Positions 7,052 to 62,767 of a stretch of DNA of 64,000 bases are shown here, piece after piece. The position numbers were made by a program, and so were the translations under genes. How positions within the stretch are numbered: the stretch's first letter is position 1; every line of letters begins with the position of its first letter. The stretch is from a virus (taxonomy: Duplodnaviria > Heunggongvirae > Uroviricota > Caudoviricetes), in IMG/VR virus record IMGVR_UViG_3300043436_003321, positions 26,530 through 90,529 of that record. One strand, written 5' to 3'. A model generated the notes under the pieces. It was given only the letters and a program-made list of their open reading frames with translations. It ran no database searches and was not told the DNA's origin.

Positions 7052-10000
7052 ACTGTTAATGCAAGTGCCCTCATATCTTTGACTCTAGGTATTCTGTGTG
7101 GCCCAGTTGAAGTCATAACTATTTTTACCGCAAAATATTTATAGTTAGTGTAGATAGCACCAGCAGAATCAAGATATTTAAAGGTTGTGCCACTTTCGAG
7201 AATAGCAGAACCACCAGCAGTTGCACTAGAGGTCACTGTTGTACCATCAGATTGGAATCCTGTAGTGCCCAATGAGTATTGGAACTCCTTAAAGTCAAAA
7301 CGATCATTGTTTGCTGATGTAAAGTTAGTTCTATCTTCTGCAAGTAGTTTAGTCCACGGGATTTGATCAAACGGTGTCGAATCAGCCGAATTCTTAAACT
7401 TACCATAAACAGTAATATCAGAACCTGGCGGTTTATATGCAGTCAACCAAATCTTTAAATCATCAGCATCAAGACCATCGGCAAGTTGGACAGTTCTTGA
7501 GATATACTTAGATGATGCAGCTCCGGCAATATTTCTATTTTCGTCAGCAATATCATTGTTGATAAGATGTTCATAGATATCCACGGTTGAAATTTCATGG
7601 TCAATAAACGGAGACGTATCACGAGTAGTTGTCGAATCATTTGATAAACTCATTCTTAAGACAAACGAATTTTCAGTAGGAGCCGCAGATTTACTCTTAA
7701 TGTAAGTTGCGGTTCCATTGAAATACTTGTTATTATCAAAGTCAATAGGTGAAGTTCCACCACCAAGATAATCACTCGAGCCGTTAGAAAGTGCAGTTGC
7801 GGCAAGAATTGATTTTGTTCTTGTAAAGTTTGATCTGTAGAATTGTGGTTGCAGATAACTTACTGGAATTGAATCAATAGATCCAATAGTGGCAGTTGCG
7901 GCTGAATCAGCACCGGTAACAACATCATTAGCCGCAAATACCAATCCAGTTTTAGCGCTAGATTCCTCAAGAATGAGTCTTACAGGATCACCAGAGGCAT
8001 TGAAGTAATCAACCTTACCGCTTACTGTTTTAAAGTAGTTTGCGGCAGTATTGGCAGCCGATGGGAATTCTTTTACAGTCAGTGATATATTATTAGCGAC
8101 ATTGGTGACCTCAAGGACTTGATAATCAGTTCCAGCAATATAGACAAGATGTTCACCTACAGCAAACGTTGACGTAAATGACGTGCCAGAACCTGTAATT
8201 GTTCTACTTGTAGTATTAGCAGAAATTGTTCCAGCAGAATTCGCACTAGTTACAAAAACGCTTTCACCACGTTTAAATTGACCCGCATATGATGAAACAG
8301 TAAAGAATTCATGGCTATTATTTGTCATCTGGAAAGAACCAGTGGCACTGCTAAACTGTGCTTTGTATAGTTTAAACTTCAGATTTTCATCATTATGTGG
8401 TGTCCATGCACGGTTATTTGTAGAAGTAAATAATGTACCGCTAGCCGCGTCCATAGTAACTTTAACCCCTGTTGCAACATCCGCTAATCCTGTCTTACAT
8501 ACCCAAATTAAATAGTCTGGATTATCTTGATCTGGAATTGTTACTACGCAATATTCCTGTCCAACTTTTAATGCAACCGGTGCGTCAAATGTTACAGTAG
8601 TCGCTACTGTTCCATCGTTTGACACACTAACATCGGCTGAATCCAGGTGAATAGATGCGAAAGGCATAGTATCTGGGCCGGGATATCCATTGACTGAGTT
8701 TCTTAATTGAACAGTAACACCCAATGTCGGACTTTTCTCTTTAAAGAATAGGTCAATCTTAGTCACCATTACAGCCGTATCAGAAGACATATCAGATTCT
8801 ATCTTGAAAGTTTGAGCAATAGGATCATTGCCAGGTGGACTAGGTTCACGGCCTCGATCGCCGGTATCCTGCGGTGGTGGGAGTGTCACAGAAGTCACAC
8901 TCGTGGTAGAACTTGTGCTTTGGGTTTGTGTGGTTACCTTTTTGAAACTAGCTTCACGGGTTGTGACTTCAAGTGGTGTTTTCTCTATTGAGAAGTTATA
9001 ACCTCTATAAGTTGCCGTTGTAGTGGAAGTTGCGGCAGCAATAGATTGTAGATCATCAACATCGGCAATAATAAGTTCTCTATCGCCGACAAAGAAGGTA
9101 TTGGCTGGAATTCTAAAAATTGCTCTTAATGTACCATTGGCATCAGATTTAATTTCATGAGTAACACCAAATTTACCTACTCTTCTCAGATCTGATACGC
9201 GTTTTGTATCACCCACATTTGCAGGAATAACACTAGTATTCACATCTACACCATCAAAGAAGAAATAGAATCTAGTATTTGGTCTTAGACCTTCTGATAG
9301 GATTCTAACATCTCTTTCTCTCAAGAAAGGTTTAAAATCAAAGTCTGTGACAAAATCACCGACAGGATTTTGTTTCTCCTTACCTGGCACTACCTGTAAC
9401 GAATTTTTTGTGGTCTGAGTAGTAGTATTTGTTGTGGTCGTAGTGGTCGTAGTTCTACCTCGAGTAACTGAAGAACTATTGGTGGTCTGACCAATAACCG
9501 CAGTTGAGACATTAGATAATGGTACAAACTCACCGATTGCGGCAACAATATCTTGTACCATCGCGGTTTGATCAAATGTAATATTTACAGCTGGAGCAGT
9601 TACTACTTCAGGTGCACCATCATATTCTGGGAATAAAACCGTAGTACCTGAGAATTTCCAGAAATCCGTAACACAGTTTCTGAATGTTGTTGCATAAGGT
9701 TGATCAATAAACTTTTTATCTGTTTTTGATAAAGTAATACCTTCGCCAAAATCTGTGACATTTGTCAGTGATCCCGATACAATCTTCATATCTAGATTGT
9801 ATTTTCTAAATCTAGGAGTCAATTCGCTATATGAAGGATCAATAGCGGCAGCAAAGTTAGTATCTTTGAGATTCGCAATTTGTAATGTATCAAAATTATC
9901 GACAAGAATACCATTTTTAAACCGATCAAGACCGCTAGAATCTGTAACGACTAGATCTGTTGCTGATTTTTCAAGTGCATTTAGAACAGTGTAGTATTCA

Positions 10001-26472: not shown

Positions 26473-27381
26473 TTACCTATAATCTTCTGAAGTGTGAATC
26501 GAAGCTTCTAATAAATTCAATTGCAATGTAAGTACAACTGGTTTACCACCTTCGAATAAGTGAAGTTGATTGCCTTCGTTAAATCTAACGTTGAATGATT
26601 GTATCATTGACGGCTTAAATTTATAATAGTACTCATCATTAATACCCAAGAACTTAATATTTACTAGATTTGGATATTTTAACAAGGCCTTTGTTTGCGC
26701 TATGGCACTAGTGCCGCCATATTCTGGTAACATAGCACCTTTTATAACCTTTATAATATCTCTTATTGTATTAGATTCTTCTTGTGATTTTGGCGAAACC
26801 GTCCACACGAAGTTGTGAAATTTAAGTCTTACCCCAGAAAAATCCACCGTAGTGTATGGATTTACGGCGCTGCCTGTATATAAGTCTGCTGCCAATCCAG
26901 CACCAGGCACTATAGAATCTAAAGCGCTTCGGCCTAACAGTTTGGCATATAGTTTATAATTCTCTAGTGATGCTTGAATTTCAGGGTTGCCTCCAAAACC
27001 AAGAGCCTCACCACTTGCACTTACCACATCTTTGGCAATATTATAAGCTCCTTCGGCGAAGGCGTCGACACCGCCAGAACCAATTGTTTGCATTGTTTGC
27101 AGTGCTAAAGCTCCAGTCACACCCAATTGCGCTTGATTAGAATCTATAGCAGTATCGTCAGATAAACTTGGTGGAATTGGAAGATATACGGTTTTAGTCC
27201 CACCAGATACATTTGCAAACCCGAACGTGCTACTATAACTATACGGAGTAAAGGACATAACCATACGAATCGCCCCAAGATCCTCGGGAAATACATAACT
27301 AGCTGATCTGGAATTTGACCGATTAATATCCATTACCTGTGAAGGTGGGGTGGCATGATTCCTTGAATATGGATCCATCAT
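26473..27381 (-). CDS. tail-tube-like baseplate protein (gp48/gp54 family candidate)
   Basis: 302 aa. First gene of the minus-strand late unit, with a TATAAATA late promoter 39 nt upstream. Beta-rich protein of tail-tube-initiator size. Confidence 0.4.
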   Translation of the reverse strand: MMDPYSRNHATPPSQVMDINRSNSRSASYVFPEDLGAIRMVMSFTPYSYSSTFGFANVSGGTKTVYLPIPPSLSDDTAIDSNQAQLGVTGALALQTMQTIGSGGVDAFAEGAYNIAKDVVSASGEALGFGGNPEIQASLENYKLYAKLLGRSALDSIVPGAGLAADLYTGSAVNPYTTVDFSGVRLKFHNFVWTVSPKSQEESNTIRDIIKVIKGAMLPEYGGTSAIAQTKALLKYPNLVNIKFLGINDEYYYKFKPSMIQSFNVRFNEGNQLHLFEGGKPVVLTLQLNLLEASIHTSEDYR

Positions 27382-27436: not shown

Positions 27437-27892
27437 ATGGCATATCAAGGAAAGTTCAAAGCAAAAAATCCTCAAAAGTATATTGGGGATTCAACTAATA
27501 TAATATATCGGTCAAGTTGGGAACTTAAACTTATGTCATATTTAGACACCCATCCAAATGTTTTGAGGTGGGGAAGTGAAGAAGTTATTATACCATATCG
27601 TAGTCCAATTGATGGGCGGATTCATAGATACTTTCCGGACTTTTTTGTTGAACAAATAAATAAGGATGGTATTAAGGATCGTATATTAATTGAAGTGAAG
27701 CCAAAACATCAAACTGTAGCACCGGATACTACTAAAAAATTAACACCACGTGGTATGATTAGCAAAAAATATCTAGCAGAAGTTTCAACGTGGGGTGTAA
27801 ATAAAGCAAAATGGGAAGCTGCAGATTCATTCTGTAAGGACAGAGGTTGGAAATTTCAAATAATGACGGAACAGGAACTGGGCATTAAGTAA
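27437..27892 (+). CDS. head completion protein gp4-like (PD-(D/E)XK-type)
   Basis: 151 aa. A TATAAATA late promoter lies 40 nt upstream. The motif YRSSWELKLMSYLD...RYFPDFFVE...IEVKP resembles the conserved gp4 head-completion family. Followed by a gp53-like gene, as in T4 (4-53-5 region). Confidence 0.55.
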   Translation: MAYQGKFKAKNPQKYIGDSTNIIYRSSWELKLMSYLDTHPNVLRWGSEEVIIPYRSPIDGRIHRYFPDFFVEQINKDGIKDRILIEVKPKHQTVAPDTTKKLTPRGMISKKYLAEVSTWGVNKAKWEAADSFCKDRGWKFQIMTEQELGIK

Positions 27893-31866: not shown

Positions 31867-32781
31867 TTAATCGTCTGCAAGATCTTTGAAGAATGAAATA
31901 TCAGTATCATCTTCATCATAGGTCGGAGATGGAGTTTCATCCAGCTTTGGAGCTTTGCGCTCTTTAAAGTTGGGGGTGAAGTCCATCTCCCCATCGTTAT
32001 CCTCAGCAGCACTGGATGTGGGTGCGCGAGTGCTACCGTCAAGGCCAAGAACGCGATACATTTTAGCCTTGAGTTCTTCATACGTTTTGAAGTTTTTAGG
32101 ATCGACGATATCTTTGAGAGAGTGTTCCTGCTTCCAAATAGCCTCAAGAGCATCGTCGTCATTATGAAGAGGTGCGGCCGGACTGAAGTCCGATTTGTCG
32201 TAGTTACGATAACCTTCATAGTTACGGATCTTAAGTTGGAAGTTAGCACCTTCCCACATGTCAAAAGGATTGACTTTTGCCTCTCCTTCATATTGTGGAT
32301 TCATAAGATCATTGAGCTTCTCAAAGATCTTTTTACCATACTTGAAGAGGAATACCTTACCCTCATTCTCTGGGCGTGAAGGATCGCGAACGACATACAC
32401 GTTAGAGACATAAGATAGGCGGCGCTTTTGTTTGCGAACAATCTCCTTATTCGCCTCAATGCCTGAATTCCAAAGTTCTGAGTTATATTCAGAAACTGGA
32501 TCGGGCAAACCAATAGTGGTCAGAGAGTTTTCGATATACCACTGGCCACCAGGCCCTTGGAACCCATGGTCCCACATGCGAATGAATGGCATATCTTCAC
32601 CAGCTGGGGCTGGGAGAAAACGAAGAACGGCATAACCATTGCCAGCCTTATCAAGGTCGGGCTTCCAATATTTACCTTCATCTTCGTTTGAATAACCGCC
32701 CTGATTCATTTTTGAAAGTTGCTCATTGAGCTTATTGAAAGATGAATTGCGGTTCTTTTTGAGGTCTGCGAAATTAACCAT
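31867..32781 (-). CDS. 32: single-stranded DNA-binding protein gp32
   Basis: 304 aa. Clear matches to T4 gp32: LDKAGNGYAVLRFLP, HGFQGPGGQWYIE, DPSRPENEGKVFLFKYGKKIF, MWEGANFQLKI, EGYRNYDKSDF, and an acidic C-terminal tail. Confidence 0.9.
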   Translation of the reverse strand: MVNFADLKKNRNSSFNKLNEQLSKMNQGGYSNEDEGKYWKPDLDKAGNGYAVLRFLPAPAGEDMPFIRMWDHGFQGPGGQWYIENSLTTIGLPDPVSEYNSELWNSGIEANKEIVRKQKRRLSYVSNVYVVRDPSRPENEGKVFLFKYGKKIFEKLNDLMNPQYEGEAKVNPFDMWEGANFQLKIRNYEGYRNYDKSDFSPAAPLHNDDDALEAIWKQEHSLKDIVDPKNFKTYEELKAKMYRVLGLDGSTRAPTSSAAEDNDGEMDFTPNFKERKAPKLDETPSPTYDEDDTDISFFKDLADD

Positions 32782-32806: not shown

Positions 32807-33394
32807 TTAGCGGAATGTTTCGAGTATTAAGTCTTTTACTTTAGTCTTATCAAAAGTCATGAAAGGTCTGTACTTAACACATTTGTTCTTTATATCAGGC
32901 CAAATGATTTTGTCAACCAATTTTTTATCCCAATAATCAAAAACTTTTGTCACTTCATTTATCATAATCAATGACTCAGTATGAATCTGTCTTGACAAAT
33001 ACATTCTGAGGAGTTTTGGATGGTGACCATCACTCGTTAACAATTGACCGTCAAAGTCACCATCCAAACTATTTATATCCTGTTTAAAGGTGTACATTAA
33101 AGATTGTTGGACTTTTTTCCAATCCTTATATACATTCTCAGCGCCATCATTAAATAAATTGCCAACCCAAATTCTCGGATCATGCATCACATTGGCCAGG
33201 ATAAATTCTTTACCATCACTACGCTTCGAAAGTTTGTAGAAATGGTACTTATCGTTACGATTCTCAAATGCATCTATTGATGCGCTCACTTTACCATTAT
33301 ATTTAAAGAAATCGTACGAACTTGTGAAATGCTTTTTCAGTGCCAAATAATAGATATAGATGGCAAAAGCATCTTTGGTTGAATATATGCTCAT
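32807..33394 (-). CDS. 59: gp59 helicase loader (loads the gp41-type replicative helicase)
   Basis: 195 aa. Matches T4 gp59 (YDFFKYNGKV, RNDKYHFYKLSKR). Adjacent to gene 32 as in T4. Confidence 0.8.
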   Translation of the reverse strand: MSIYSTKDAFAIYIYYLALKKHFTSSYDFFKYNGKVSASIDAFENRNDKYHFYKLSKRSDGKEFILANVMHDPRIWVGNLFNDGAENVYKDWKKVQQSLMYTFKQDINSLDGDFDGQLLTSDGHHPKLLRMYLSRQIHTESLIMINEVTKVFDYWDKKLVDKIIWPDIKNKCVKYRPFMTFDKTKVKDLILETFR

Positions 33395-33621
33395 AGCGGT
33401 AGCTTGGCTGTCTTTTCTTCCAATAAATTAAGCCTTTCGGCATCATCACGAACTTTTGATTTTAAAACTACCGAGCGCCGAATAATGTCTCCAAGTAATT
33501 CTATTTCAATGTCATGTTGTTCGGCATAATAAACGATTGCATCTATCAATGATACATCAGTATTTGTATATTTCTCAATTTCTCTGAGAATAAATTCAGG
33601 GGTTAATGTATTATTGTTCAT
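33391..33621 (-). CDS. late-transcription accessory protein, gp33-like candidate
   Basis: 76-aa acidic protein in the gene-33 position upstream of 59-32. Called on synteny only. Confidence 0.3.
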   Translation of the reverse strand: MNNNTLTPEFILREIEKYTNTDVSLIDAIVYYAEQHDIEIELLGDIIRRSVVLKSKVRDDAERLNLLEEKTAKLPL

Positions 33622-34305: not shown

Positions 34306-35271
34306 TTATTTAAGAGCGGAAACCTCAGCTTGAGTAGCTGCAAGTTCTGGATCTGGCACAAGACCGTAATCAGCCAACGGCCCGCCAGGACCGGCCATTT
34401 CGTCGCTCACGAAGAACTCGACATATTCCTTTAGACCAGGAATAACACCGATATGAGCATTCTTCACATAGAAGAACAATGGGCGGCTGATTGGATAGTC
34501 ACCGCTTGAGATGGTTTCTACGCTTGGTGCTACACCACTAACAGTCGCAACTTCTAACTTGTCAGTGTTGTTCTGATAGAAGCTAAGACCAAACACACCA
34601 AGCGATGTTTTATTAGCATCAAGACGAGCAAGTGTCTCAGTATAATCACCATCGATGTCGACAGCGGCACCATCAGTTCTTACCTTTACGCATGCCTTTT
34701 TTTGATCGTCATCAAGTTTCTCAACACCGAGTACCGATTTGCAACCTGCTTCCATGACCTTTACATCAAACACTTCACGTGTACCGTGTTTGGTACCTGG
34801 AATGTAAGCAAGAATCTCTACTTCTGGAAGAGTTGAGTCGACTTCACTCCAGAGTTTAGCAGTGCTCGACTCATGTAGTGCGCTATAGAGTTGTTCAACA
34901 GTCAAGTCTTTGATGTTGAGCTGACCGATGTTTGAAGCAAACACGATGCCATCATAACCAATACGAACCTCAGTCACTTCACCAACAACTTCTTCGCACT
35001 TAGCCCATTCTTCATCTTTCATCTTTGAAGAACTATTTGCGATATCAACGGTGTTTTCACCAACACCTTCACAGAGCTTTTTGCGACCTGCACCTGATCC
35101 GCCACCTTCAACTACTGGCGAAGGAAAGTCAAAATTTTCACCAAATGCTTCTGAAACAATGGTTGCATATGGCAGGACAGTAGACGATCCTGTGACTTGG
35201 ACATTATCTCTTGCAAATGCAGTAGATGCTGCAGCCAAGACCAATGTAGTGCTAAGTAAAAGTACTTTCAT
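34306..35271 (-). CDS. pstS: periplasmic phosphate-binding protein PstS (auxiliary metabolic gene)
   Basis: 321 aa. N-terminal signal peptide MKVLLLSTTLVLAAASTAFA. PstS-type motifs VQVTGSSTVLPYAT and DYPISRPLFFYV. Has its own upstream intrinsic terminator and a Pho-box-like direct repeat. Confidence 0.85.
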   Translation of the reverse strand: MKVLLLSTTLVLAAASTAFARDNVQVTGSSTVLPYATIVSEAFGENFDFPSPVVEGGGSGAGRKKLCEGVGENTVDIANSSSKMKDEEWAKCEEVVGEVTEVRIGYDGIVFASNIGQLNIKDLTVEQLYSALHESSTAKLWSEVDSTLPEVEILAYIPGTKHGTREVFDVKVMEAGCKSVLGVEKLDDDQKKACVKVRTDGAAVDIDGDYTETLARLDANKTSLGVFGLSFYQNNTDKLEVATVSGVAPSVETISSGDYPISRPLFFYVKNAHIGVIPGLKEYVEFFVSDEMAGPGGPLADYGLVPDPELAATQAEVSALK

Positions 35272-35323
35272 TCAATTTCTCCACAATAAGAGGCTTGCGG
35301 TTTGCTTCCTCATAGTGGTAATT

Positions 35324-35341
35324 TATAACACGATTGTAACA
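35324..35341 (-). promoter_or_regulatory. Pho-box-like direct repeat upstream of pstS (TGTTACA-atcg-TGTTATA)
   Basis: Two 7-bp direct repeats with 11-bp periodicity, about 50 nt upstream of the pstS ATG. This resembles the E. coli-type CTGTCAT-N4-CTGTCAT Pho box. Weak, by-eye call. Confidence 0.25.
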
Positions 35342-35380
35342 ATTAGGTTAAATCTATATTATAGTTTTGTAATAAATGAT

Positions 35381-35407
35381 AAAAAGTGGAGCTAACCATG
35401 GCTCCAC
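35381..35407 (-). terminator. rho-independent terminator after the OMP-like gene
   Basis: Minus strand reads GTGGAGC-CATGGTTA-GCTCCAC followed by TTTTT (7-bp perfect stem, 35386-35392 / 35401-35407). Confidence 0.7.
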
Positions 35408-35443
35408 GCGGGTTTATTACGTAACCACCCGATATCAGATAAC

Positions 35444-35833
35444 TTAGAAGCTAAGTGATAGACCAACAATGCTGTCAACATATCCGAAGTCACCATCAAA
35501 GTTATTCTCGATGTAAGCTTCTACACTTGCAGGACCTAGGTCAATGTTTGGCACATAGGTTGCACCAAGAACGGCACCTTCGAAAGCAGAACGATCAAAC
35601 GAGATAAACTCATCGCCATCATAGATAGCAAGATCGGTTTCGGCCCAGATGCCAAGACCTTCGATTGGTGCATATGCAAGACGTGGGGTTAGAACAGAAG
35701 TGAAGACGGTGGTGTCGGTGTTATATTCAGTAACAAGCTCAGTGTTAAGAGCAAGGCCGTTACCAAAATCAAGAGCGGATGCTGCAGAAGTCATAGCGAG
35801 CATAGCAGCAGTTGCAAGAAGAATCTTTTTCAT
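35444..35833 (-). CDS. small secreted beta-rich protein, outer-membrane-protein-like (C-terminal Phe)
   Basis: 129 aa. Signal peptide MKKILLATAAMLAMTSAASA. Alternating hydrophobic pattern and C-terminal ...GLSLSF, typical of beta-barrel OMP termini. RBS AAGGA. Confidence 0.45.
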   Translation of the reverse strand: MKKILLATAAMLAMTSAASALDFGNGLALNTELVTEYNTDTTVFTSVLTPRLAYAPIEGLGIWAETDLAIYDGDEFISFDRSAFEGAVLGATYVPNIDLGPASVEAYIENNFDGDFGYVDSIVGLSLSF

Positions 35834-35854
35834 ATTTGGATATCCTTAAAGGTT

Positions 35855-36140
35855 GAGTTACGGCCCGTTCTGTTTCTAGGTGGAACCATACCCAAGTGCT
35901 TATGCAGCTAGTGCGTAAGCCTGAGGAGCAAAGTTATCGTTTGCATTTGTATGTTTGGCTGAATAACGTAGGCCAACACGGTAATCTCCACTTGCTTTCA
36001 ACACCTGTCGATCCTAATTTCGACCCCAGCAAAAGTGGTCTGACTTCACAGACTGTAGACTGAACTAGGTCTAGCACTTATGGTGGAGTCGCTGGGTACC
36101 GCCCCCAGGTCCAGAATGTCTATCGTCTGTTTCAACGATT
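35855..36140 (-). ncRNA. ssrA: circularly permuted (two-piece) tmRNA, ssrA
   Basis: On the minus strand the coding piece starts at 36027. GGGGUCGAAAUUAGGAUCGACAGG closely matches the E. coli tmRNA 5' end GGGGCUGAUUCUGGAUUCGACGGG. The tag reading frame GCA AAC GAU AAC UUU GCU CCU CAG GCU UAC GCA CUA GCU GCA UAA (35944-35900) encodes ANDNFAPQAYALAA*. The acceptor piece lies upstream (36120-36081): T-arm-like CUGGG-GGCGGUA-CCCAG, then CGACUCC-A-CCA. The 3' strand CGACUCC pairs with the 5' GGGGUCG and gives a G3:U70 wobble, the AlaRS identity pair. A 53-nt intervening segment separates the two pieces, the order typical of alphaproteobacterial-type permuted ssrA. Promoter directly upstream. The 3' boundary is uncertain. 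Confidence 0.75.
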
Positions 36141-36180
36141 ACTAGTTATATATAAACCATGTTGAGCAAATGTCAACGAT
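36141..36180 (-). promoter_or_regulatory. sigma70-like promoter for the tmRNA (TTGACA-N17/18-TATATA)
   Basis: Minus strand atcgTTGACAtttgctcaacatggtttaTATATAac. The -35 box is 36176-36171 and the -10 about 36152-36147. Same -35 hexamer as the phage early promoter family. Confidence 0.55.
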
Positions 36181-36229
36181 AAAAATCCCAATTGTGAATT
36201 ATGTTACTTTTATGTCACACCACTTTAAG

Positions 36230-36367
36230 TTATCCTTTTTCGTAGCGTCTTTGTTTTTCTTCGTAACTCATTTTAGGTTCTGTCCGAACTGGGACTGGAG
36301 GTTCTTCTCCAACCTTAGCAGTTTCTTCAATTGCTTTATCTAATTTTGATATATCCCATTTTGCCAT
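36230..36367 (-). CDS. small charged hypothetical protein (45 aa, MAKWDISKLDKAIEE...)
   Basis: Internal ATG of the 62-aa track ORF, lying 2 nt after the hydrolase stop (TAAAATGG). The longer upstream start would overlap the hydrolase gene. Confidence 0.3.
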   Translation of the reverse strand: MAKWDISKLDKAIEETAKVGEEPPVPVRTEPKMSYEEKQRRYEKG

Positions 36368-36368
36368 T

Positions 36369-36866
36369 TTACGAATCCTTGTAGAAAATATGATCGCCAA
36401 TGCGAATAGTCCGTTCATATGACTTACGCCAATACGGTTTCACATAAGTTGCATGAAACATAATAGCGCCGTCTGTCGGGTCTTTATATGTTCGAGGATT
36501 ATAATATCGTGTATATACCAAACTAGCTAATTTTTTAGCTCTAATCCAATCCTCTTGGTTTTTAGGCGTGTCTGACTTTCCGTCATGTGTCCAACTAAAT
36601 TGTGAATCTTGCCAAACGACATCGCAAATAGTATTTGGATATCCTTTTGAATGTACTCTATTGAGAGTCACCCAGGCAATTGCTTTTTGCCCTAAATCAG
36701 ATTGATCTCTGGCTTCGAAGTAAATATTCTTGGCCAAACATTCAATTTGTTTATAGTGTTCATTATATACATTCCTTTGTTTATCAGTATTTTGAGCTTG
36801 AACACTAGTATAATCCAACCCTACCGTGAATAGTAAGGTTAGAATGAATAGAGTTTTCTTTTTCAT
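36369..36866 (-). CDS. secreted cell-wall hydrolase, SleB/CwlJ (Hydrolase_2) family; endolysin candidate
   Basis: 165 aa. Signal peptide MKKKTLFILTLLFTVGLDYTSVQAQ. Hydrolase_2 motifs ECLAKNIYFEARDQS, AIAWVTLNRV, ICDVVWQDSQFSW. Preceded by a perfect TTGACA-N17-TATAAT promoter. Confidence 0.75.
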   Translation of the reverse strand: MKKKTLFILTLLFTVGLDYTSVQAQNTDKQRNVYNEHYKQIECLAKNIYFEARDQSDLGQKAIAWVTLNRVHSKGYPNTICDVVWQDSQFSWTHDGKSDTPKNQEDWIRAKKLASLVYTRYYNPRTYKDPTDGAIMFHATYVKPYWRKSYERTIRIGDHIFYKDS

Positions 36867-36892
36867 ATTCCTTATTCCATATGATTGACCAT

Positions 36893-36931
36893 AGTACCAT
36901 TATACACGTATGCTATGGTAATGTCAACCAC
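36893..36931 (-). promoter_or_regulatory. sigma70-consensus promoter (TTGACA-N17-TATAAT) for the cell-wall hydrolase gene
   Basis: Minus strand tggTTGACAttaccatagcatacgtgTATAATggt. The -35 box is 36927-36922 and the -10 box 36904-36899. Confidence 0.6.
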
Positions 36932-38964
36932 TATTTTGTGGTTGCCCTGAAAATGCCATCCCAGTCGGCAGACAACGGTTGCGTTTTCATGAATTCACAG
37001 CGTTCGATCCACATCTTATAGTATCCTTCCATCTTACCATCGAAGTGATGCATAAGAAGTTCGCATAAAGTCTGGGCTTTTGTGAATTCCTGATTGCGAT
37101 ACATTCGAAGCATTTCATCATGCTTCTTTTTGGCTATATCCCAAGCCTGTTTTGGATCATCAAGTACCGTATAGATACGTAATCCAACTGTTTTACCTTT
37201 TACGGCTAGTTCATCTAGCTCAAGGTAGAAAAAATCATCCTTTGTTCGTTCATATGTGGTTGGCCCTATAATCAATAACACACCATACGACTTACACTGG
37301 CCTTCCAGTCGTGCCGTTGTCGATACGGCGTCGCCTAGAACGTCATAGCTGTGGCGTTGTGTTGACCCCATCTCACCGATATAACCCAACCCAGTATTGA
37401 TACCAGCACCCATGCCAACCTTTGGTCGCCCTTTGGCAATCAACTGTTCATTAAACTTTTCAACCGCCTTGATCATATTCAAGCCAGTTTGTACCGCTGA
37501 TTTAGGATGATCTGGATCATCAATAGGAGCGTTGTGGATATGCATTGATGCATCACCAATGTATTTAATGATCATACCTCTGGCGTCAAGAACTGGTTGT
37601 GTAATCGCATCCATATAACCATTCATCACCTCAGTCAGACCTTTCACATCATCGCCGAACGATTCCCCAAGTGGTGTAAAGCCGCGAAGGTCAGAGAAGC
37701 AAATAGATACCTCCTTCTTAATTCCATCCTTGACAAGTTCTGGATTTCGTTGTAATATTTCAACTACCTCAGGTGAAGCATAACCGCCAAATTGTTTCTT
37801 AATTCGCATTTTGGCAAAGTATTCTTGACCATACTTAAGTCCGTAGACGTGCGCAAAGATAAGAACCGCCAATGCACCAGAGATTGCAGTGTTTACCAAG
37901 ATATAACTTGTAGCAAACGCATAGAACGGATAGTAAATGGCAGCGCCGATGAGTAGGATAGGTGCCATCCAACCGAATCGCACATACGACGTAGCTACGA
38001 TGAGCAGACCGATTAGAACGATTGAGCCTAGTTTATATAGATCCGCCTCGAGTGGTGTAACGATGTTGTATTCGTTGACTACAGATGCAAAGGCCGAGGC
38101 TGTAATGTCATGTCCATACATTGGCCCAGTTGCGGTAGGCACTGGATTGGACAATCCTTCTGCCGTAAGGCCTACAAATACTGTAGCACCTTTCAGGTCG
38201 GGAAATTCATCGTCAAGATTATATCGCTGAAACTTATAGTTTGGATTGATCCAGATTCGACTTAGAGTGTCAGTATTGATTGTCGGGAATCCCTTTACTC
38301 GTACTGCTTCAACACCTAGGTCGCCAGTTTTTACCTGATACGTTTCGGTGTCCATATAGACTTTTAGAATCTCGAGTACAACAGATGGGTATAGAGTTTC
38401 ACCTACGGCTGATATCATAGGAAGACGACGGACAACTCCATCAATCTCTGGTACAGTGCTTGCAATGCCAATTCCGCTAGCCCTACGTTCATACTCGCCA
38501 ATATTAGCAGCAATGCCAGGATAGTTGGGAACATAACCAATAGCGCGATTACCAACTTCAGCGATGCCTGTAGTATAGGCTGCCCTCCCGTCAGTTTGTG
38601 TTGAAGGAAAGTGTGATATGATAACGCCTTGGCCCAATAGTTCTTTAAATAGTTCATCTTGTCCTGTCCTATCTTCTTCTGGGAAAGAAATGTTGAATAC
38701 GATTGCCCCAGCATTCGCTAGTCGTAAGTTTTGGATAAGTTCGCCATACACATTACGAGGGAATGGATACTGACCATGCTTTTCAAGCGTGTCTTCCGAT
38801 ATATCTATTAATGCAATATCATCAACTGATATTTGTTCTTGAACAATTAACTGGTCAAAGAATTTAAGTTCCACATTTTGCATAAATGTTGGGTTTAATA
38901 AGATTATCCAGGCGAGTAATACAGTGGTAACAAGCGCCCAAAGCGGAGATAATAGCCATTTCAT
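36931..38964 (-). CDS. CHASE2 sensor domain-containing class III adenylate/guanylate cyclase
   Basis: 677 aa. N-terminal TM helix, then a periplasmic domain of about 300 aa of CHASE2 type. Multi-TM region (residues 310-380). C-terminal cyclase catalytic domain with VSICFSDLRGFTPLGESF, KYIGDASMHIHNAP and GMGAGINTGLGYIGEMGSTQRHSYDVLGDAVSTTARLE motifs. 4-nt overlap (ATGA) with the upstream FecR-like gene. Confidence 0.85.
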   Translation of the reverse strand: MKWLLSPLWALVTTVLLAWIILLNPTFMQNVELKFFDQLIVQEQISVDDIALIDISEDTLEKHGQYPFPRNVYGELIQNLRLANAGAIVFNISFPEEDRTGQDELFKELLGQGVIISHFPSTQTDGRAAYTTGIAEVGNRAIGYVPNYPGIAANIGEYERRASGIGIASTVPEIDGVVRRLPMISAVGETLYPSVVLEILKVYMDTETYQVKTGDLGVEAVRVKGFPTINTDTLSRIWINPNYKFQRYNLDDEFPDLKGATVFVGLTAEGLSNPVPTATGPMYGHDITASAFASVVNEYNIVTPLEADLYKLGSIVLIGLLIVATSYVRFGWMAPILLIGAAIYYPFYAFATSYILVNTAISGALAVLIFAHVYGLKYGQEYFAKMRIKKQFGGYASPEVVEILQRNPELVKDGIKKEVSICFSDLRGFTPLGESFGDDVKGLTEVMNGYMDAITQPVLDARGMIIKYIGDASMHIHNAPIDDPDHPKSAVQTGLNMIKAVEKFNEQLIAKGRPKVGMGAGINTGLGYIGEMGSTQRHSYDVLGDAVSTTARLEGQCKSYGVLLIIGPTTYERTKDDFFYLELDELAVKGKTVGLRIYTVLDDPKQAWDIAKKKHDEMLRMYRNQEFTKAQTLCELLMHHFDGKMEGYYKMWIERCEFMKTQPLSADWDGIFRATTK

Positions 38965-39998
38965 TGTTGTATGATCCTCACGTTATTACTAGATCGTTCA
39001 TCTAAAGTTAGAATATTTATAGTAGTGCTACCCTGGTTTAAAATCATTCCAACCCCAACACTTTCATCAAATTTATAGTTGACAGATTGATTCGAGCCAA
39101 ATCTCACCACGTTCACAGTAGGAGCATCAATTACAGTAACGACACCAGTCACTGGATTCGCCCCAGCAATAACACCGTCCGGATTCTTTTCGAGTGCACT
39201 AATATCCAATTCATTTTCTAAAAGAACCGCTTCTAGCGAATTGATTGACAGATCATCAAACTTGAGTTCATCTACCTTAAGGTCACTAAAATCTAATAAA
39301 TCCTCGTCGAGTTCATTAATATCAAGAGGTGATGAATTTTCATATGCTTCTTTTTCTTCAAGTGATTTTGGTTTACTTACGATCAATAAATTGTTAATCT
39401 GGTCACCAGTAATATCAAGAACTTTTGGCTCACTTGGGGCACCTGATCTGCTAGTTACAAGAGTTGCTTGAAAGGCTCTATTAAGTAATACATAGCCCGC
39501 ATCGGTCGATACTATAATCGACCCAATACTTCCGTCAAGATTTGGGACCAAAATTACTAACGATTTACCAATTTCATCAACTGTCATATAGAAAGCAGTA
39601 CCGCGAACAGCAATAGTAGCCGAGGGTGTTTGTATGTCAACTGTGTCTGGATTATTGTGTGCGATGTTACCAGAGGCATACTTTACAGTACCCATTGCGA
39701 CCTTCAACCCCAATGAGCCTTGAGAGGTTGACGGATCGTACACAAAGTCGTCAATAACTAACTCAGAATGTTCACCAATGTGAACCTGAGTCTCGTCGTC
39801 AAATGTAATCCCTACTTCACCCTTGGCGGTTTGTACATAATCATCCATTTCGACGGCCAGGCTTAAGTCGGCGTCAAGTTTTTGTTTTTGACGCTCGACT
39901 AAACCTGACCCATTGAATTCTGTAATCGAACCTATTTCTGCATAAACTATAGTGGGATTAATCAGACTGAGTAATAGTAATAGTCTGATTAGAGCCAT
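38961..39998 (-). CDS. FecR-domain periplasmic protein (usual partner of CHASE2 cyclases)
   Basis: 345 aa. Signal peptide MALIRLLLLLSLINPTIVYA. The N-terminal half has a FecR-like pattern (GEVGITFDDETQVHIGEHSELVIDDFVYD...ATIAVRGTAFYMTV). The acidic C-terminal half is repetitive. Confidence 0.55.
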   Translation of the reverse strand: MALIRLLLLLSLINPTIVYAEIGSITEFNGSGLVERQKQKLDADLSLAVEMDDYVQTAKGEVGITFDDETQVHIGEHSELVIDDFVYDPSTSQGSLGLKVAMGTVKYASGNIAHNNPDTVDIQTPSATIAVRGTAFYMTVDEIGKSLVILVPNLDGSIGSIIVSTDAGYVLLNRAFQATLVTSRSGAPSEPKVLDITGDQINNLLIVSKPKSLEEKEAYENSSPLDINELDEDLLDFSDLKVDELKFDDLSINSLEAVLLENELDISALEKNPDGVIAGANPVTGVVTVIDAPTVNVVRFGSNQSVNYKFDESVGVGMILNQGSTTINILTLDERSSNNVRIIQQ

Positions 39999-40638
39999 CG
40001 GTCACCATATTGATATTAGAAGCTGCGAGAGTAGTCGATTGGTCAATAGTAACAGTATTGTCATTCCCAACCATAGTCATTGTAATTGTATGGCCGTCTA
40101 AGGATGAACCATACCCAGTTTGAGTAATATCGAAAGCATTTGTGTCACCGGTAACATTAACTGTATGTGTAGCTCCATCTGAATCAATAGCCATCGTAAA
40201 GGTATTATCCTCTCCGGCAATATTATATGTAAGCGTAGTATATTCAGCACTGGAATTTTGTCCCATTTCAAGATCAATCATGTTATAACTTCCAGTGATA
40301 TTAAACGTAAGTGTGCTGTATGAGCTCAACGTTGCTAACCAATCGAATTCGTTGCCGTCTCCGACCTGGTTAAGTGTATATGTAAGACTATCACCGCTGA
40401 CAGTCCCTCTTAGTTTGTTCAAATCGCCTTCTTGGTTGATTGTATATGTCTGATCGTCACCGTCAATTGTAAAGTATGGAGAAGGTGCTGATACGTCTCC
40501 AATCGCATTGCCATCACCAGATTTCTGTGTGATAGCCATAGTTAAGTTTTCGCCGGCCTGATCAATGTAAATTGATTGATCCGCCATAGTTGCAAAAGGC
40601 ACCATTACAAAAATACTTGTAATAGCTAAGTTTTTCAT
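39958..40638 (-). CDS. secreted curlin-repeat protein (CsgA/CsgB-like amyloid subunit candidate)
   Basis: 226 aa. Signal peptide MKNLAITSIFVMVPFATMA. At least six imperfect repeats of the form (I/L)(D/N/T)Q.G(D/E).N resembling the curlin repeat S-x5-Q-x-G-x-G-N (IDQAGEN, ITQKSGDGN, INQEGDLN, LNQVGDGN, ITQTGYGS, IDQS). Immediately downstream of csgG. Confidence 0.55.
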   Translation of the reverse strand: MKNLAITSIFVMVPFATMADQSIYIDQAGENLTMAITQKSGDGNAIGDVSAPSPYFTIDGDDQTYTINQEGDLNKLRGTVSGDSLTYTLNQVGDGNEFDWLATLSSYSTLTFNITGSYNMIDLEMGQNSSAEYTTLTYNIAGEDNTFTMAIDSDGATHTVNVTGDTNAFDITQTGYGSSLDGHTITMTMVGNDNTVTIDQSTTLAASNINMVTDGSNQTITITQSD

Positions 40639-40648
40639 TTTTCCCTCT

Positions 40649-41386
40649 CTACCAAAGTCCTTGTTTCTTGCCCTTTAAAGTTAACTCATATACTGCTTTT
40701 TCGATCGCAGTTTTAATGGCAAAACTAGAAGCTTCGTTTGTGTTTGTTCCTGTTTCCAATTCTAAGGTTTGCGTGTCCTGGTCAAAGAATTTCATGACAG
40801 TCATATTATCGCCGTAAGCCAAAACTTCTTTCTCGACGATAATAGTTGATACTACTTCTGTTGTTGCAACTGATACTGCCCTGAGAGCAATCGTAACAGT
40901 ATGTCTGCTATATTCTTTTGATGCACCGATGCCGAATATTCTGGCACCTATGCCACCAGATGTCGTATTGACATCATACCCAACGATACCACCTTCGATT
41001 ATGATTCCGGCGTAAAGCATTACTGGTAGATCGCTGTCCTTTATTCCAGGTTCTACAGTTTCTCTTGCCGATCTGATAATCTGTCGTTCACGTACTATAT
41101 TATCAATGCCTTTACGTTCAACTACTCGATACCATGTACCATTAGAGAATTCTTTTAAAGCATCAATAAGGAAATTTTCAGCGCCTTGTGTCACAGCTGT
41201 CGAGAGAGTCGTACCAGCCCTCTGACCTGTGAGATCATTATAACCATATACGGCAACAATCACTCTACCTCGCTCTGGCGGCGGTAGTACGTATGATGTA
41301 GGTTGTACAACCTCAGGAGCTGTCGTCTGAAGCGATTCTGTTGTTGCACATGCCGATAACAATATGAGAAGAATCAACCACTTCAT
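40649..41386 (-). CDS. csgG: curli production assembly/transport lipoprotein CsgG
   Basis: 245 aa. Lipoprotein signal with lipobox LLSAC. Strong alignment by eye to E. coli CsgG: RVIVAVYGYNDLTGQ vs KIFVSVYNIQDETGQ, LIDALKEFSNGTWYRVVERKGIDNIVRERQIIRSARE vs LVTALKDSRWFIPLERQGLQNLLNERKIIRAAQE, GIVGYDVNTTSGGIGARIFGIGAS vs SIIGYESNVKSGGVGARYFGIGAD. Confidence 0.85.
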   Translation of the reverse strand: MKWLILLILLSACATTESLQTTAPEVVQPTSYVLPPPERGRVIVAVYGYNDLTGQRAGTTLSTAVTQGAENFLIDALKEFSNGTWYRVVERKGIDNIVRERQIIRSARETVEPGIKDSDLPVMLYAGIIIEGGIVGYDVNTTSGGIGARIFGIGASKEYSRHTVTIALRAVSVATTEVVSTIIVEKEVLAYGDNMTVMKFFDQDTQTLELETGTNTNEASSFAIKTAIEKAVYELTLKGKKQGLW

Positions 41387-41862
41387 AGTCCGAAATCTCC
41401 TACCGGTACTTCAATAGTGGTTGTCTCGCCTTCAGGATTCGTAATAGTCAGCGTGATTGTATCGCCATTATTGTAGTACTCAATTGTATTGCCAAGAATT
41501 TCTATTATGCCCGAGTCGTTTCCGTCACCATTGAAGATGGCGTCCACCAACTCTTTTGATATCTGTGCATAAACCCTGGATTCAATGTTGCGTAGGAACT
41601 TATTCAAATTTGAATTCTCAAGTTCTCTTTCAATCTCTGCCGCCAAAGCCTCGGCCTTATCGTCAAGTCGTTGCTGATTCTTCTGCGTCATTTGATCTAG
41701 GGTCAGAACGTGCGAAGACCATCCGATCCCAGAGAAGGACGGATTTGAAAACTGATATCCTTCCTGTGCTACGACTCTACTTGGCGTCAGGTTTATAAGC
41801 GTTAGGATCACCAGTAGAGTTAAAAATTTTGCTTTTACTCTGATATTTTGTAATAATTGCAT
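41383..41862 (-). CDS. csgF: curli assembly protein CsgF
   Basis: 159 aa. Signal peptide, then EGYQFSNPSFSGIGWSS matching the CsgF N-terminal FQFRNPNFGG motif. C-terminus EGETTTIEVPVGDFGL matches CsgF TGQTSTIQVSGL. 4-nt overlap with csgG. Confidence 0.7.
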   Translation of the reverse strand: MQLLQNIRVKAKFLTLLVILTLINLTPSRVVAQEGYQFSNPSFSGIGWSSHVLTLDQMTQKNQQRLDDKAEALAAEIERELENSNLNKFLRNIESRVYAQISKELVDAIFNGDGNDSGIIEILGNTIEYYNNGDTITLTITNPEGETTTIEVPVGDFGL

Positions 41863-42902: not shown

Positions 42903-43853
42903 TTAGGCCGCTTCTGCCATTTCTAGGGCCAATTCAAGAGCCTCAGTCTTGAGTTTCCGATTGGTGCCATACCAGGCCGACTGCAGTCGAGTATCGGCCG
43001 ACCGACCAAGTTCGTGGTCAGTCATGAAGGTAATGGCATTGAAAGCCGACCACCAGCTACCTTCGGCAAATTCAGCACCGGGTTGTTCAACCAGGACTTC
43101 CATTGCCCGGTTGGCAGTGCGACTCAATTCGCCCTCATTCTTCTTGGACATACCGAGCAGGTGGCCGAAGTATTGCTTCACGGTCTCTTCCGTGGTGCGC
43201 TTGGAGCCAAGGAACGAAGCCATTTCCTTGTATTGAGCCATCTTGAAGTGGGCGATACCCATCATATCCTTAACGGCATCGGCATCAAACTTTTGGCGGT
43301 GGTTCAGTTTCACTGCATTTTGTGCCGATTGGTTCAGCGACAACGTCAGAGTGTTATTGCAGACCACACGGATGGGAGTGAAACGAATGTCAATCGTCTT
43401 GCCGTATTGGTGGGGGTTCGAGAAGAGCATGTAGCTCTCAACCTTGTCACCGTTGAAGAGTTCGAAATCATCCTCAACTTTAGCCAGAGCCCAGATGATT
43501 TCGCCATTCTTGAGCGAACCGGCAGTGTGCATTTTCATCTTACCGGCATCGGTGAAGTCTTTGAAGAAGTCAAAAGCTTCCTCGTTCTGCACCGGGTGCC
43601 AACCCTTACCCACCTGGGTCAGGACACGACCGTCAGTCTCACGGATAAGAGCCTTCATACCGGTGGGGACACGTTTGCCGTTAAACTCGGCGAAGGTTTC
43701 AACTTCCTGGACACGCCAGTCAACACCAGCAGCTGCCATCATTTCGGCCGGAGCCAAGTCATCGGAGACCTGCACGCCAAGACCGTGCCAGGGGAGATCG
43801 CCGGCATATGCCATTTGGGCTTTACCGTTGACGATTTCAAGTTCATGAGCCAT
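42903..43853 (-). CDS. DUF932 / phage-plasmid-like protein (TIGR03299-type)
   Basis: 316 aa. N-terminal GDLPWHGLGVQV motif typical of the DUF932 family. Noticeably GC-richer than the flanking DNA. Confidence 0.5.
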   Translation of the reverse strand: MAHELEIVNGKAQMAYAGDLPWHGLGVQVSDDLAPAEMMAAAGVDWRVQEVETFAEFNGKRVPTGMKALIRETDGRVLTQVGKGWHPVQNEEAFDFFKDFTDAGKMKMHTAGSLKNGEIIWALAKVEDDFELFNGDKVESYMLFSNPHQYGKTIDIRFTPIRVVCNNTLTLSLNQSAQNAVKLNHRQKFDADAVKDMMGIAHFKMAQYKEMASFLGSKRTTEETVKQYFGHLLGMSKKNEGELSRTANRAMEVLVEQPGAEFAEGSWWSAFNAITFMTDHELGRSADTRLQSAWYGTNRKLKTEALELALEMAEAA

Positions 43854-51639: not shown

Positions 51640-52587
51640 TTACTTCACTACATCCATGAACGGAACAGTCGAGTCTGGGATCATAGTGGTAGGAAGAGCA
51701 CCATTCCACTTCTCAGCCTGAACTAGAGCAATCAGACCAGCGTTATCCTTAAGAGCCTCTGCTTTCGCCTTAATGGCAGATGCCTCTGCTTCACCACGGA
51801 TGCGAGTTGCTTCAGCTTCTGCGGTTGCTCGAGCGAGTTGAGCATCAGCTTCTGCTTGAGCCTGGATTACGGTAATCTCAGCAGTGACCTTTTCACGCTC
51901 AGCGTTCTGACGAACTTTCTGCACTTCAACCTCTGCAAGCATACGAGCTTCAATCGAGTTCTCATAAGCATCAGAGAAGTCAATGTTCTCGATCTGAACT
52001 GATTCAACAATGATAGGACCGATTACAGCCTTCTGAATTGCCATCTGAACTTCTGCGGCGAGACGTTCACGCTCCTGAATAGCAGTCGAAGCGTTAAACT
52101 TACCAAAGACGTTCTTGACTTCTTCAAGAACCTGGCGATCGAGCAAACGAGAAATTACACCAGCTTCGCCACCATATTCACGATAGATTGTCTCGACTTG
52201 ATCTGCAGGGAAGCGATAGTTAACGGATAGGTTCAGACCCGCAGTCTGTTGATCACGAGAATAAGCAAGGATATTCTCATAAAGTTGAGCCTGCGATTGG
52301 ACGCTAATGTCGACTACACTTTCAATCAAAGGCAGTTTAAAACCAAGACCAGGATCGGCAGTGCCAATAACTGCACCGTTACGCAATTGCACACCACGAT
52401 AGCCTTCATTCACAGTGTACCACGAACCACCAATCACAGTCAGCGCGGTAAGACCAACAAGAGCAGCAAAAGTACCACCAACGACAACATTCATTTTCAT
52501 TTTCCTTTTATATTCATCATATTGTTTCAAAGCATCCGTATATTCGCGCTGTGTTCCAAAATCCCACTTATCAGGCCTTTTCATCAC
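51640..52587 (-). CDS. SPFH/band-7 (prohibitin/HflKC-like) domain protein
   Basis: 315 aa. N-terminal TM helix, then the SPFH core (YTVNEGYRGVQLRNGAVIGTADPGLGFKLPLIESV), then an Ala/Glu-rich coiled coil. Confidence 0.8.
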   Translation of the reverse strand: MMKRPDKWDFGTQREYTDALKQYDEYKRKMKMNVVVGGTFAALVGLTALTVIGGSWYTVNEGYRGVQLRNGAVIGTADPGLGFKLPLIESVVDISVQSQAQLYENILAYSRDQQTAGLNLSVNYRFPADQVETIYREYGGEAGVISRLLDRQVLEEVKNVFGKFNASTAIQERERLAAEVQMAIQKAVIGPIIVESVQIENIDFSDAYENSIEARMLAEVEVQKVRQNAEREKVTAEITVIQAQAEADAQLARATAEAEATRIRGEAEASAIKAKAEALKDNAGLIALVQAEKWNGALPTTMIPDSTVPFMDVVK

Positions 52588-62058: not shown

Positions 62059-62246
62059 TAATTCAAGCCCTCGTATTTTGCTTTTAGTCGAGCGAGTTCG
62101 GCTCGTTCTTTACGTTCTTTGTCTTTACGCAGCCATCTGATATAGATATCTTGGTCGTATGTGCGATCCTTGTTGCAGCATTCCCATCCGATAGGACCGC
62201 AATCGGTAAGTGGTTGTTTACACCCTTCACATACTAACTCAGTCAT
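62058..62246 (-). CDS. small Cys-rich (zinc-ribbon-like) protein
   Basis: 62 aa. CEGC...C...CC pattern. Confidence 0.45.
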   Translation of the reverse strand: MTELVCEGCKQPLTDCGPIGWECCNKDRTYDQDIYIRWLRKDKERKERAELARLKAKYEGLN

Positions 62247-62767
62247 TCGATTACCTCGTTTGGAAACTTTTCTGTTGGTACAAACACGTATTCAGGTTTA
62301 TCCGGCTGTGTCCAAGGAAACTCGATAAACACTCGGCTTTCACGACCCGTATAGTAGTCCTTATATGGTTTACCTTCGTCAATATCTGGCGACGAATACC
62401 ATTCCCAGAACACTCGTCCGTCCATCCAGTATGGTCGACCATCTTCATCCTTAAAGACAGAACTGTTACGTTTGTTCTGCCATACATCAGGACCTACTTC
62501 AGTCCACTCGTCAGATTCGCCAGTCAAAGGCGCAATAGGTTTCCATGATGCAAGCTTCTCAAACAGAGCTACTGCATACGGCGCTGACATACCGCTGTGA
62601 CCTTGTTCTGAGAACACTTTCAGAAGTTCGAGCGTTCCTTCTGCTAGCCAACGGTTAGGTCCATCTTCTGGATCATTAATATCATATCCAGCCAGTTTAA
62701 GTTCGGCTTCCGCCCATTTCAACATGTTGCTCATTTGCTTTCCTCTATTAGATTTTTCAAGCGCCAC
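62243..62767 (-). CDS. hypothetical protein
   Basis: 174 aa. Confidence 0.5.
   Translation of the reverse strand: MALEKSNRGKQMSNMLKWAEAELKLAGYDINDPEDGPNRWLAEGTLELLKVFSEQGHSGMSAPYAVALFEKLASWKPIAPLTGESDEWTEVGPDVWQNKRNSSVFKDEDGRPYWMDGRVFWEWYSSPDIDEGKPYKDYYTGRESRVFIEFPWTQPDKPEYVFVPTEKFPNEVIE

Follow-up and report, generated by a model that had tools for sequence, protein, structure and literature searches.

A permuted, alphaproteobacterial-type tmRNA gene, very probably functional, in the genome of a T4-like phage

Transfer-messenger RNA (tmRNA), the product of ssrA, occurs in a two-piece form, for which tRNA-processing enzymes cleave a permuted transcript into two pieces that pair with each other (PMC11915505). 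This form was experimentally characterised in Caulobacter crescentus (Keiler, Shapiro & Williams 2000, as cited in PMC9004378 and PMC11915505) and is represented in Rfam by the family RF01849. A tmRNA database of 2025 holds 11,946 permuted entries and 79 bacteriophage tmRNAs (PMC11915505), and a search of 18,146 phage genomes with ARAGORN revealed 53 two-piece tmRNAs, of which 50 were aquatic (PMC9004378). Buchholz et al. (2022) described two-piece ssrA genes in phage Melnitz and in pelagimyophages, noted an early promoter, and reported that Melnitz, which infects OM43, carries ssrA of the alphaproteobacterial type (PMC9004378). Here, we analyzed a 64,000-nucleotide (nt) stretch of the Caudoviricetes record IMGVR_UViG_3300043436_003321 (positions 26,530 to 90,529), referred to as the window, which carries a gene of this type on its minus strand at positions 35855-36140. 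A phage two-piece tmRNA in this genomic position is already known, and it is this copy that is new. A search of INPHARED returned no near-identical phage, with only 256 nt of the gp32 gene matching two Synechococcus phages, and the tmRNA gene itself matched three phages in short blocks only.

We consider it very probable that the phage, which is T4-like (Kyanoviridae-like), carries in its genome an ssrA of the alphaproteobacterial two-piece type that is intact and functional. The observations behind this reading are the identity of the gene, its intact anatomy, covariation among its homologues, a conserved promoter and a conserved position in phage genomes. ARAGORN detected one RNA gene in the whole 64 kb, a permuted tmRNA with the tag ANDNFAPQAYALAA. 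The gene matched the Rfam models RF01849 (alpha_tmRNA) with 118.8 bits (gathering score of 50, E value of 8.8e-32) and RF04321 (tmRNA_permuted) with 123.2 bits (gathering score of 47, E value of 1.4e-23), and both matches were full length, covering model positions 1-355 of 355 and 1-213 of 213, respectively. These scores fall in the same range as those of relatives and exceed that of Melnitz. An earlier note, made from the letters of the window alone, had proposed a permuted alphaproteobacterial-type tmRNA in a T4-like phage and had suggested ARAGORN and Infernal with Rfam models as a check; the calls given above, the P2 helices and pseudoknots read in the gene and the T4-like genes around it bear out this proposal. 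In the alpha_tmRNA alignment, the window gene lacks approximately 45 consensus positions beyond its stop codon, and the 5′ hairpin of the model maps onto the window promoter.

The order of the gene is permuted, as the T-arm, the 3′ acceptor strand and the CCA, which ends at 36081, lie upstream of G1 (36027) and of the tag frame on the same strand (all coordinates are those of the window and, unless stated otherwise, of its minus strand). Re-reading of this strand agreed with the acceptor-piece-first order given by the earlier note, with the A-CCA end lying 53 nt upstream of the 5′ strand (segment 36080-36028), and also with its 7-bp acceptor stem, in which GGGGUCG pairs with CGACUCC and which includes G3:U70, an alanine identity element; a discriminator A and an encoded ACCA complete the acceptor end. 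The acceptor piece (36081..36143, approximately 63 nt), delimited by Rfam alignments and covariation, holds the 5′ strands of P2, namely, the distal strand GUAAUC (36142-36137) and the proximal strands CAU (36118-36116) and CUG (36114-36112), which rest on the same two lines of evidence. These are followed by the T-arm CUGGG-GGCGGUA-CCCAG (36108-36092), which has 5 bp and a 7-nt loop, and by the 3′ acceptor strand CGACUCC (36091-36085), the discriminator A (36084) and CCA (36083-36081), which were read directly and from Rfam. The earlier note had taken the T-loop GGCGGUA to be divergent; it is, in fact, the exact alpha_tmRNA consensus and is common to more than 120 viral contigs, a caution for annotators that an alpha-clade T-loop is not to be taken as aberrant. 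Within the acceptor piece, a possible hairpin (AUCGU 36139-36135 with ACGAU 36125-36121) competes with two of the distal P2 pairs, and relatives have a hairpin on the conserved GUUGAAGCAA at the equivalent position; the architecture there may be a three-way junction or the 4-bp inter-piece helix of Rfam.

Between the two pieces lies the intervening segment (IVS; 36028..36080, 53 nt), which is predicted to be removed from the precursor. As judged from direct reading and a minimum free energy (MFE) fold, it has a 5-bp closing stem (AAGUG/CACUU) with two hairpins inside, and UUGCU forms the leader that precedes G1. The coding piece (35856..36027, approximately 172 nt), whose predicted 3′ end is the end of the alpha_tmRNA alignment, starts with the acceptor 5′ strand GGGGUCG (36027-36021, direct reading). 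The start at 36027 given by the earlier note was upheld, as the piece begins there with GGGGUCGAAAUUAGGAUCGACAGG, while the asserted near-identity to E. coli ssrA did not hold: in a blastn search, the gene had no match at an E value of ≤0.01 in any of 5,426 E. coli genomes, and the resemblance is only generic. Farther along the piece, direct reading, Rfam and covariation placed the proximal P2 3′ strands CAG (36007-36005) and GUG (36004-36002) and the distal strand GAUUAC (35986-35981). Then follows, by direct reading, a putative pseudoknot PK1 (35955..35980), both stems of which can be drawn in the window, with stem 1 formed by CGUG (35980-35977) and UACG (35970-35967) and stem 2 by UUGGC (35976-35972) and GCCAA (35959-35955). 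The tag frame (35900..35944), which the earlier note had already located and which both direct reading and ARAGORN returned as ANDNFAPQAYALAA followed by UAA, starts on the resume codon GCA and reads GCA AAC GAU AAC UUU GCU CCU CAG GCU UAC GCA CUA GCU GCA UAA. The 3′ pseudoknot (35862..35893), again read directly, pairs GGGU (35893-35890) with ACCU (35881-35878) in stem 1 and GGUUC (35887-35883) with GGGCC (35866-35862) in stem 2, and it encloses the conserved AACAGAA (35874-35868), present in 74 of 90 homologues among the matches listed. On direct reading, no stem of the tmRNA is disrupted.

When IMG/VR was scanned for the T-loop and acceptor motif of the alpha type, at least 120 contigs were obtained, and ARAGORN called a permuted tmRNA with an in-frame tag in at least 65 of these; the homologue counts used here (48, 63, 89 and 90) refer to the matches listed, among which the closest contig, L033, is 75% identical. 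We aligned 48 distinct viral copies with MAFFT after taking out the IVS and counted pairs on an explicit structure. The cells were paired in 86.6% of cases, compared with 37-45% when the partners were slid by 1-3 columns, and 206 cells had changed on both sides, compared with 67.5 ± 9 in shuffles, none of which (0/500) reached 206. Compensatory double changes were found at all 12 of the 12 P2 pairs, whose two helices were paired in 88.7% and 90.3% of the cells, and the acceptor pair 5:68 as well as the second T-stem pair each occurred in all four Watson-Crick forms. The other acceptor and T-arm pairs were invariant, which is partly imposed by the homologue search pattern and is evidence neither way. 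In an alignment-free test, in which each sequence's own partner segment was scored against partners taken from other sequences, the IVS closing stem scored 9.7 with its own partner and 5.3 with those of others, so the complementary IVS ends are a feature of the family; stem 2 of the 3′ pseudoknot scored 6.3 and 4.5, respectively. As for PK1, two pairs of stem 2 covaried in the 48-copy alignment (130:157 and 131:156), stem 1 was 46% paired in the MAFFT alignment, in which PK1 is misregistered and its architecture varies between subgroups, and the alignment-free test over all viral copies gave no clear signal, with 3.62 versus 3.30. Collectively, the compensatory changes seen in this phage lineage show that the structure of the RNA is under selection.

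The promoter is conserved as well. The −35 hexamer TTGACA (36171..36176) was found at the same place with at most one mismatch in 68 of 89 distinct viral homologues. The −10 region TATATATA (36147..36154), which lies behind a spacer of 16 to the first hexamer, is one mismatch away from TATAAATA, the octamer that stands exactly at the −10 place in 62/89 of the homologues listed. All positions of TTGACA-N15-19-TATAAATA were matched (14/14), in most cases with N17, at 46 of the 89 loci listed but in only 3 of 445 control windows, which were taken at random from the same viral loci; when up to two mismatches were allowed, these numbers were 63/89 and 5/445. In 48 of these 63 loci the octamer ends 4-5 nt before the first base of P2, the distance in the window being 4 nt. 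The sigma70-like promoter that the earlier note had seen directly upstream of the gene is, therefore, borne out by conservation at homologous loci, with the spacer read as 16. A generic promoter scan of the window did not list this promoter because its −10 region lacks the final T. The octamer TATAAATA, which occurs eight times on the coding (minus) strand of the window and once on the plus strand, is the well-established T4 late-promoter consensus (Geiduschek & Kassavetis 2010, as cited in PMC9004378). As the −10 region doubles as this motif, the family promoter could serve host sigma70 and the phage late machinery alike, and the variant in the window looks more purely sigma70-like.

Transcription should start at about 36142, in which case the primary 5′ end would also be the mature 5′ end of the approximately 63-nt acceptor piece. 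This piece appears to start right at P2. The acceptor RNA of Caulobacter is approximately 82 nt long. At a distance of 23 nt after the tmRNA, a ribosome-binding site (RBS; AAGGA) and an ATG open a gene (35833-35444) for a 129-amino-acid (aa) protein with a signal peptide and with no match in Pfam or PHROG. Since a terminator-like hairpin (35407-35386) follows this gene, and no terminator was found in the interval between it and the tmRNA, the mRNA of the secreted protein is probably part of the same primary transcript as the pre-tmRNA. In several relatives, too, the tmRNA is followed directly by a signal-peptide gene.

Established tmRNA biology, for which PMC3985003 describes a 5′ end made by RNase P, charging with alanine, binding of EF-Tu and partnership with SmpB, leads us to expect host factors to process and charge the phage RNA and to put it to use. 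Host RNA polymerase would initiate at the sigma70-type promoter (TTGACA-N16-TATATA), at about 36142, and produce a single precursor, from which host tRNA-processing enzymes would excise the 53-nt IVS, with RNase P cutting at G1 (36027) and 3′ trimming halting at the encoded CCA (36081). The products, an acceptor piece of about 63 nt and a coding piece of about 170 nt, would pair with each other in the 7-bp acceptor stem and in P2 and be charged by host alanyl-tRNA synthetase via G3:U70. Together with host SmpB and EF-Tu, the RNA would then enter stalled ribosomes, translation would restart on GCA and add ANDNFAPQAYALAA, a degradation tag ending in ALAA, and the ribosome would be freed at UAA. 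A possible benefit to the phage is that ribosomes would stay available during the breakdown of host mRNAs and the shutoff of host transcription. A tblastn search with E. coli SmpB found no SmpB in the 64-kb window or in the 120 viral loci listed. Of the 37 Pfam families with matches in 57 open reading frames (ORFs) of the window, the best 25 did not include SmpB, and the phage copies are expected to rely on the SmpB of the host.

The closest described counterpart, along with those of related pelagimyophage genomes, is the annotated SsrA of Melnitz (MZ577097.1, 45984-46436), which, like the window gene, is an alpha-type two-piece tmRNA in a T4-like Kyanoviridae genome. In Melnitz, as in the window, the tmRNA lies directly upstream of the genes for the gp33 coactivator, the gp59 loader and, further on, the gp32 single-stranded DNA-binding protein (SSB); both genomes also carry CsgF/CsgG, curlin, FecR and an adenylate/guanylate cyclase as a rare module, together with a SleB-type hydrolase, and in Melnitz the upstream promoter, too, has the form TTGACA...TATA(A/T)ATA. 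However, the similarity of the DNA is limited to two short blocks, and the two genes differ in the tag (ANDNYVPVDYALAA in Melnitz and ANDNFAPQAYALAA in the window), in the T-loop (GGCAGUA and GGCGGUA, respectively) and in the IVS, which is approximately 145 nt long and contains a small ORF in Melnitz but has 53 nt and no such ORF in the window. Small ORFs, many of them hydrophobic and some with an RBS in front, are also found in the IVS of some other relatives, where it measures 98-155 nt; they encode 47 aa in L116 (~4994-5148; the same sequence in L022), 27 aa in L004 (within 6223-6596, minus strand) and 35 aa in L117 (within 9141-9555, minus strand), and the ORF of Melnitz lies at ~3910-4055 of the contig listed as L122. 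Furthermore, a glutamine riboswitch stands directly 3′ of the Melnitz tmRNA (RF01739, 52.8 bits; L122 4231-4279, plus strand), whereas around the window tmRNA neither this riboswitch nor any other Rfam family reached its gathering threshold; at positions 35200-36900 the riboswitch was absent at an E value of ≤1, and the gene continues straight into the secreted-protein gene and pstS. In L121, a manA RNA motif, absent from the window, follows the tmRNA immediately on its 3′ side (2536-2743, minus strand, 63.2 bits).

With the alphaproteobacterial two-piece type in general, the window gene shares the permuted order, the T-loop GGCGGUA, G3:U70, the encoded CCA, P2, a tag of the form ANDN...AA and a 3′ pseudoknot built around AACAGAA, together with a putative PK1. 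It departs from that type in being virus-borne without an smpB of its own in the 64 kb and in the shortened region after the stop codon. Partial DNA similarity to the window tmRNA was also seen in roseophage DSS3_MAL1 (MN602268.1, annotated ssrA), Phaeobacter phage MD18 and Sinorhizobium phage Phosso; it is limited to 42 nt within the tRNA-like domain, at 90.7%, or to 173 nt with 71.5%, and these phages are unrelated to the window phage. One-piece and CDS-less phage tmRNAs, such as that of mycobacteriophage DS6A, are phage-borne too, but they are nonpermuted or have no tag frame, in contrast to the permuted window gene with its complete tag.

The window is T4-like throughout, with gp32, gp59, gp33, the baseplate proteins gp6, gp8, gp25 and gp53, the T4_baseplate family, RNase H and PhoH. 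On the coding strand, the genes 3′ of the tmRNA are, in order, those for the 129-aa secreted protein, PstS (34306-35271), an unknown ORF, the late-transcription coactivator gp33 (33391-33621), gp59 (32807-33394) and gp32 (31867-32781). The PstS-like periplasmic phosphate-binding protein, two genes downstream of the tmRNA, has a signal peptide and matches PBP_like_2 with an E value of 1.4e-50; PstS is a typical auxiliary gene of marine phages. Upstream of the tmRNA, the minus strand encodes a SleB-type cell-wall hydrolase (Hydrolase_2, 36369-36866), a protein with CHASE2 and adenylate/guanylate cyclase domains (36931-38964), a FecR-domain protein (38961-39998), a curlin-repeat-like protein (39958-40638), CsgG (40649-41386) and CsgF (41383-41862). 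Among 50,697 phage records, CsgG was found only in Pelagibacter phage HTVC008M, four Melnitz isolates and one 1.5-kb Salmonella fragment, and HTVC008M and Melnitz possess the same curli/FecR/cyclase module as the window (36931-41862). The tmRNA stands beside gp33, gp59 or gp32 in seven metagenomic contigs as well (L099, L021, L049, L118, L075, L086 and L121), and because Melnitz and these seven contigs share the placement, we judge the tmRNA to be a stable resident of this phage lineage. L121 (NYWG01000240.1, 6096 nt) is filed in a 'Verrucomicrobiales bacterium' metagenome-assembled genome; it carries gp59, gp33, a SleB-type hydrolase and an alpha-type tmRNA along with two more homologues of window genes and is almost certainly a misbinned fragment of a T4-like phage. 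A SleB-type hydrolase lies within a few kilobases of the tmRNA in approximately 30 of the at least 120 viral contigs, as it does in Melnitz. Elsewhere, the window encodes a homologue of the Thoeris inhibitor Tad3 (62243-62734, minus strand; PF25185, E value of 1.3e-38), which is a candidate antidefense gene, a protein with a TnsA-like endonuclease N-terminal domain (27437-27892, plus strand), a DUF932 protein (42903-43853, minus strand) and an SPFH/Band 7 protein (51640-52584, minus strand).

The viral copies listed carry 49 distinct tags, of which 33/49 start with ANDN and 33/49 end with LAA, while the middle part is highly diverse. The form ANDNFAP-xxx-ALAA occurs in several phage copies. 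In 185,579 genomes of bacterial and archaeal species, this form had a single match, which was the phage contig L121; the pattern was strict, with a GCA resume codon, a TAA stop and a fixed length, so that similar host tags could escape it, and the phage specificity of the tag form is suggestive only. The earlier note had read the style of the tag as pointing to an alphaproteobacterial host. This inference is unsafe because Melnitz, which has an alpha-type gene at the same locus, infects OM43 of the Methylophilales, a nonalphaproteobacterium (PMC9004378), and the type of a tmRNA alone gives no basis for naming the host, a second caution for annotators. The gp32 of the window is closest to those of Sinorhizobium phages phiN3 and phiM12 (57% aa), a likeness that is compatible with an alphaproteobacterial host but is no proof of one.

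Several points weigh against an intact, functional ssrA. The fold of the 294-nt precursor was not better than that of shuffles (z = −1.14), the closing stem of the IVS has just 5 bp, the covariation of PK1 is only partly resolved, the −10 region TATATATA departs from the TATAAATA of the family, and, as neither the window nor the 120 viral loci listed yielded an SmpB gene, the RNA can work only if it is compatible with the SmpB of the host. The z score is weak evidence because the structure of tmRNA is pseudoknotted and bimolecular; the MFE fold of the precursor recovered the acceptor stem and the IVS hairpins but not the T-arm and the pseudoknots. Read as signs of decay, the missing SmpB partner, the deletion of approximately 45 model positions after the stop codon and the mismatch in the −10 region could mark the gene as a nonfunctional relic captured from a host. 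We regard this as very unlikely, as the gene matches the covariance models over their full length with scores in the range of its relatives, its stems are undisrupted, compensatory changes reveal selection on structure, the promoter and the in-frame tag are conserved, and the position is kept across divergent phages. Least credible of all is that the gene is host DNA, whether an attachment-site remnant of a prophage, a contaminant or an assembly chimera. It is true that prophages and genomic islands commonly integrate at tmRNA genes (PMC11915505, PMC9004378), and some of the at least 120 IMG/VR matches may be such cases; the gene in the window, however, is complete and not a 3′ fragment, it has T4-type genes on both flanks inside one co-oriented gene block, and at least seven independent contigs, as well as four cultured Melnitz isolates, have it in the same place. 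Moreover, the Pfam matches of the window survey include no integrase, and the composition has no clear break, with 44.0% GC in the 2-kb stretch that holds most of the tmRNA against a range of 35-47% within the window, whose overall GC content is approximately 40%. In view of the gene context in the window, in its relatives and in Melnitz, the attachment-site or host-contamination explanation was dropped.

The remaining alternative is that the RNA is expressed but acts in a noncanonical way. It might outcompete or replace the host tmRNA, its phage-specific tag altering recognition by adaptors or proteases, or it might substitute for a host tmRNA that has been inactivated by a defense system. 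The diversity of the middle part among the 49 tags speaks for such a role, as does the finding that ANDNFAP-xxx-ALAA occurs in none of the bacterial species representatives, its only match being a phage contig. Recycling of amino acids has been raised as an idea by Buchholz et al. (PMC9004378), and the CDS-less tmRNA of mycobacteriophage DS6A is reported to inhibit the endogenous tmRNA in E. coli (PMC11915505). Nevertheless, the tag still begins with the canonical ANDN and finishes with ALAA, all elements of ordinary trans-translation are intact and covary, and the restrictive scan pattern could have overlooked similar host tags, which makes this role improbable, if less so than decay. In its fullest form, the tmRNAs of the lineage would be a phage-specific system that is expressed throughout infection from a composite promoter, sigma70 for the early and TATAAATA for the late phase, and either the lineage tag ANDNFAP-xxx-ALAA would redirect handling by adaptors and proteases or the RNA would replace a host tmRNA that is lost or under attack; to this version, too, we give only a small chance. 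An intact ssrA that serves ordinary trans-translation through host factors is, in our judgment, by far the better reading of the locus.

As a tmRNA call, the gene is a matter of routine annotation and one more well-supported example of a catalogued class. It confirms that the ssrA-gp33-gp59-gp32 arrangement is not confined to the pelagimyophages and Melnitz but is also found in a T4-like phage richer in GC. The near-perfect composite promoter found in about half of the copies listed, the downstream regulatory RNAs that vary or are absent, the ORFs within the IVS and the tags that are absent from bacterial genomes, none of which alone changes the picture, could offer leads to the reasons behind the investment of large marine phages in ribosome rescue.

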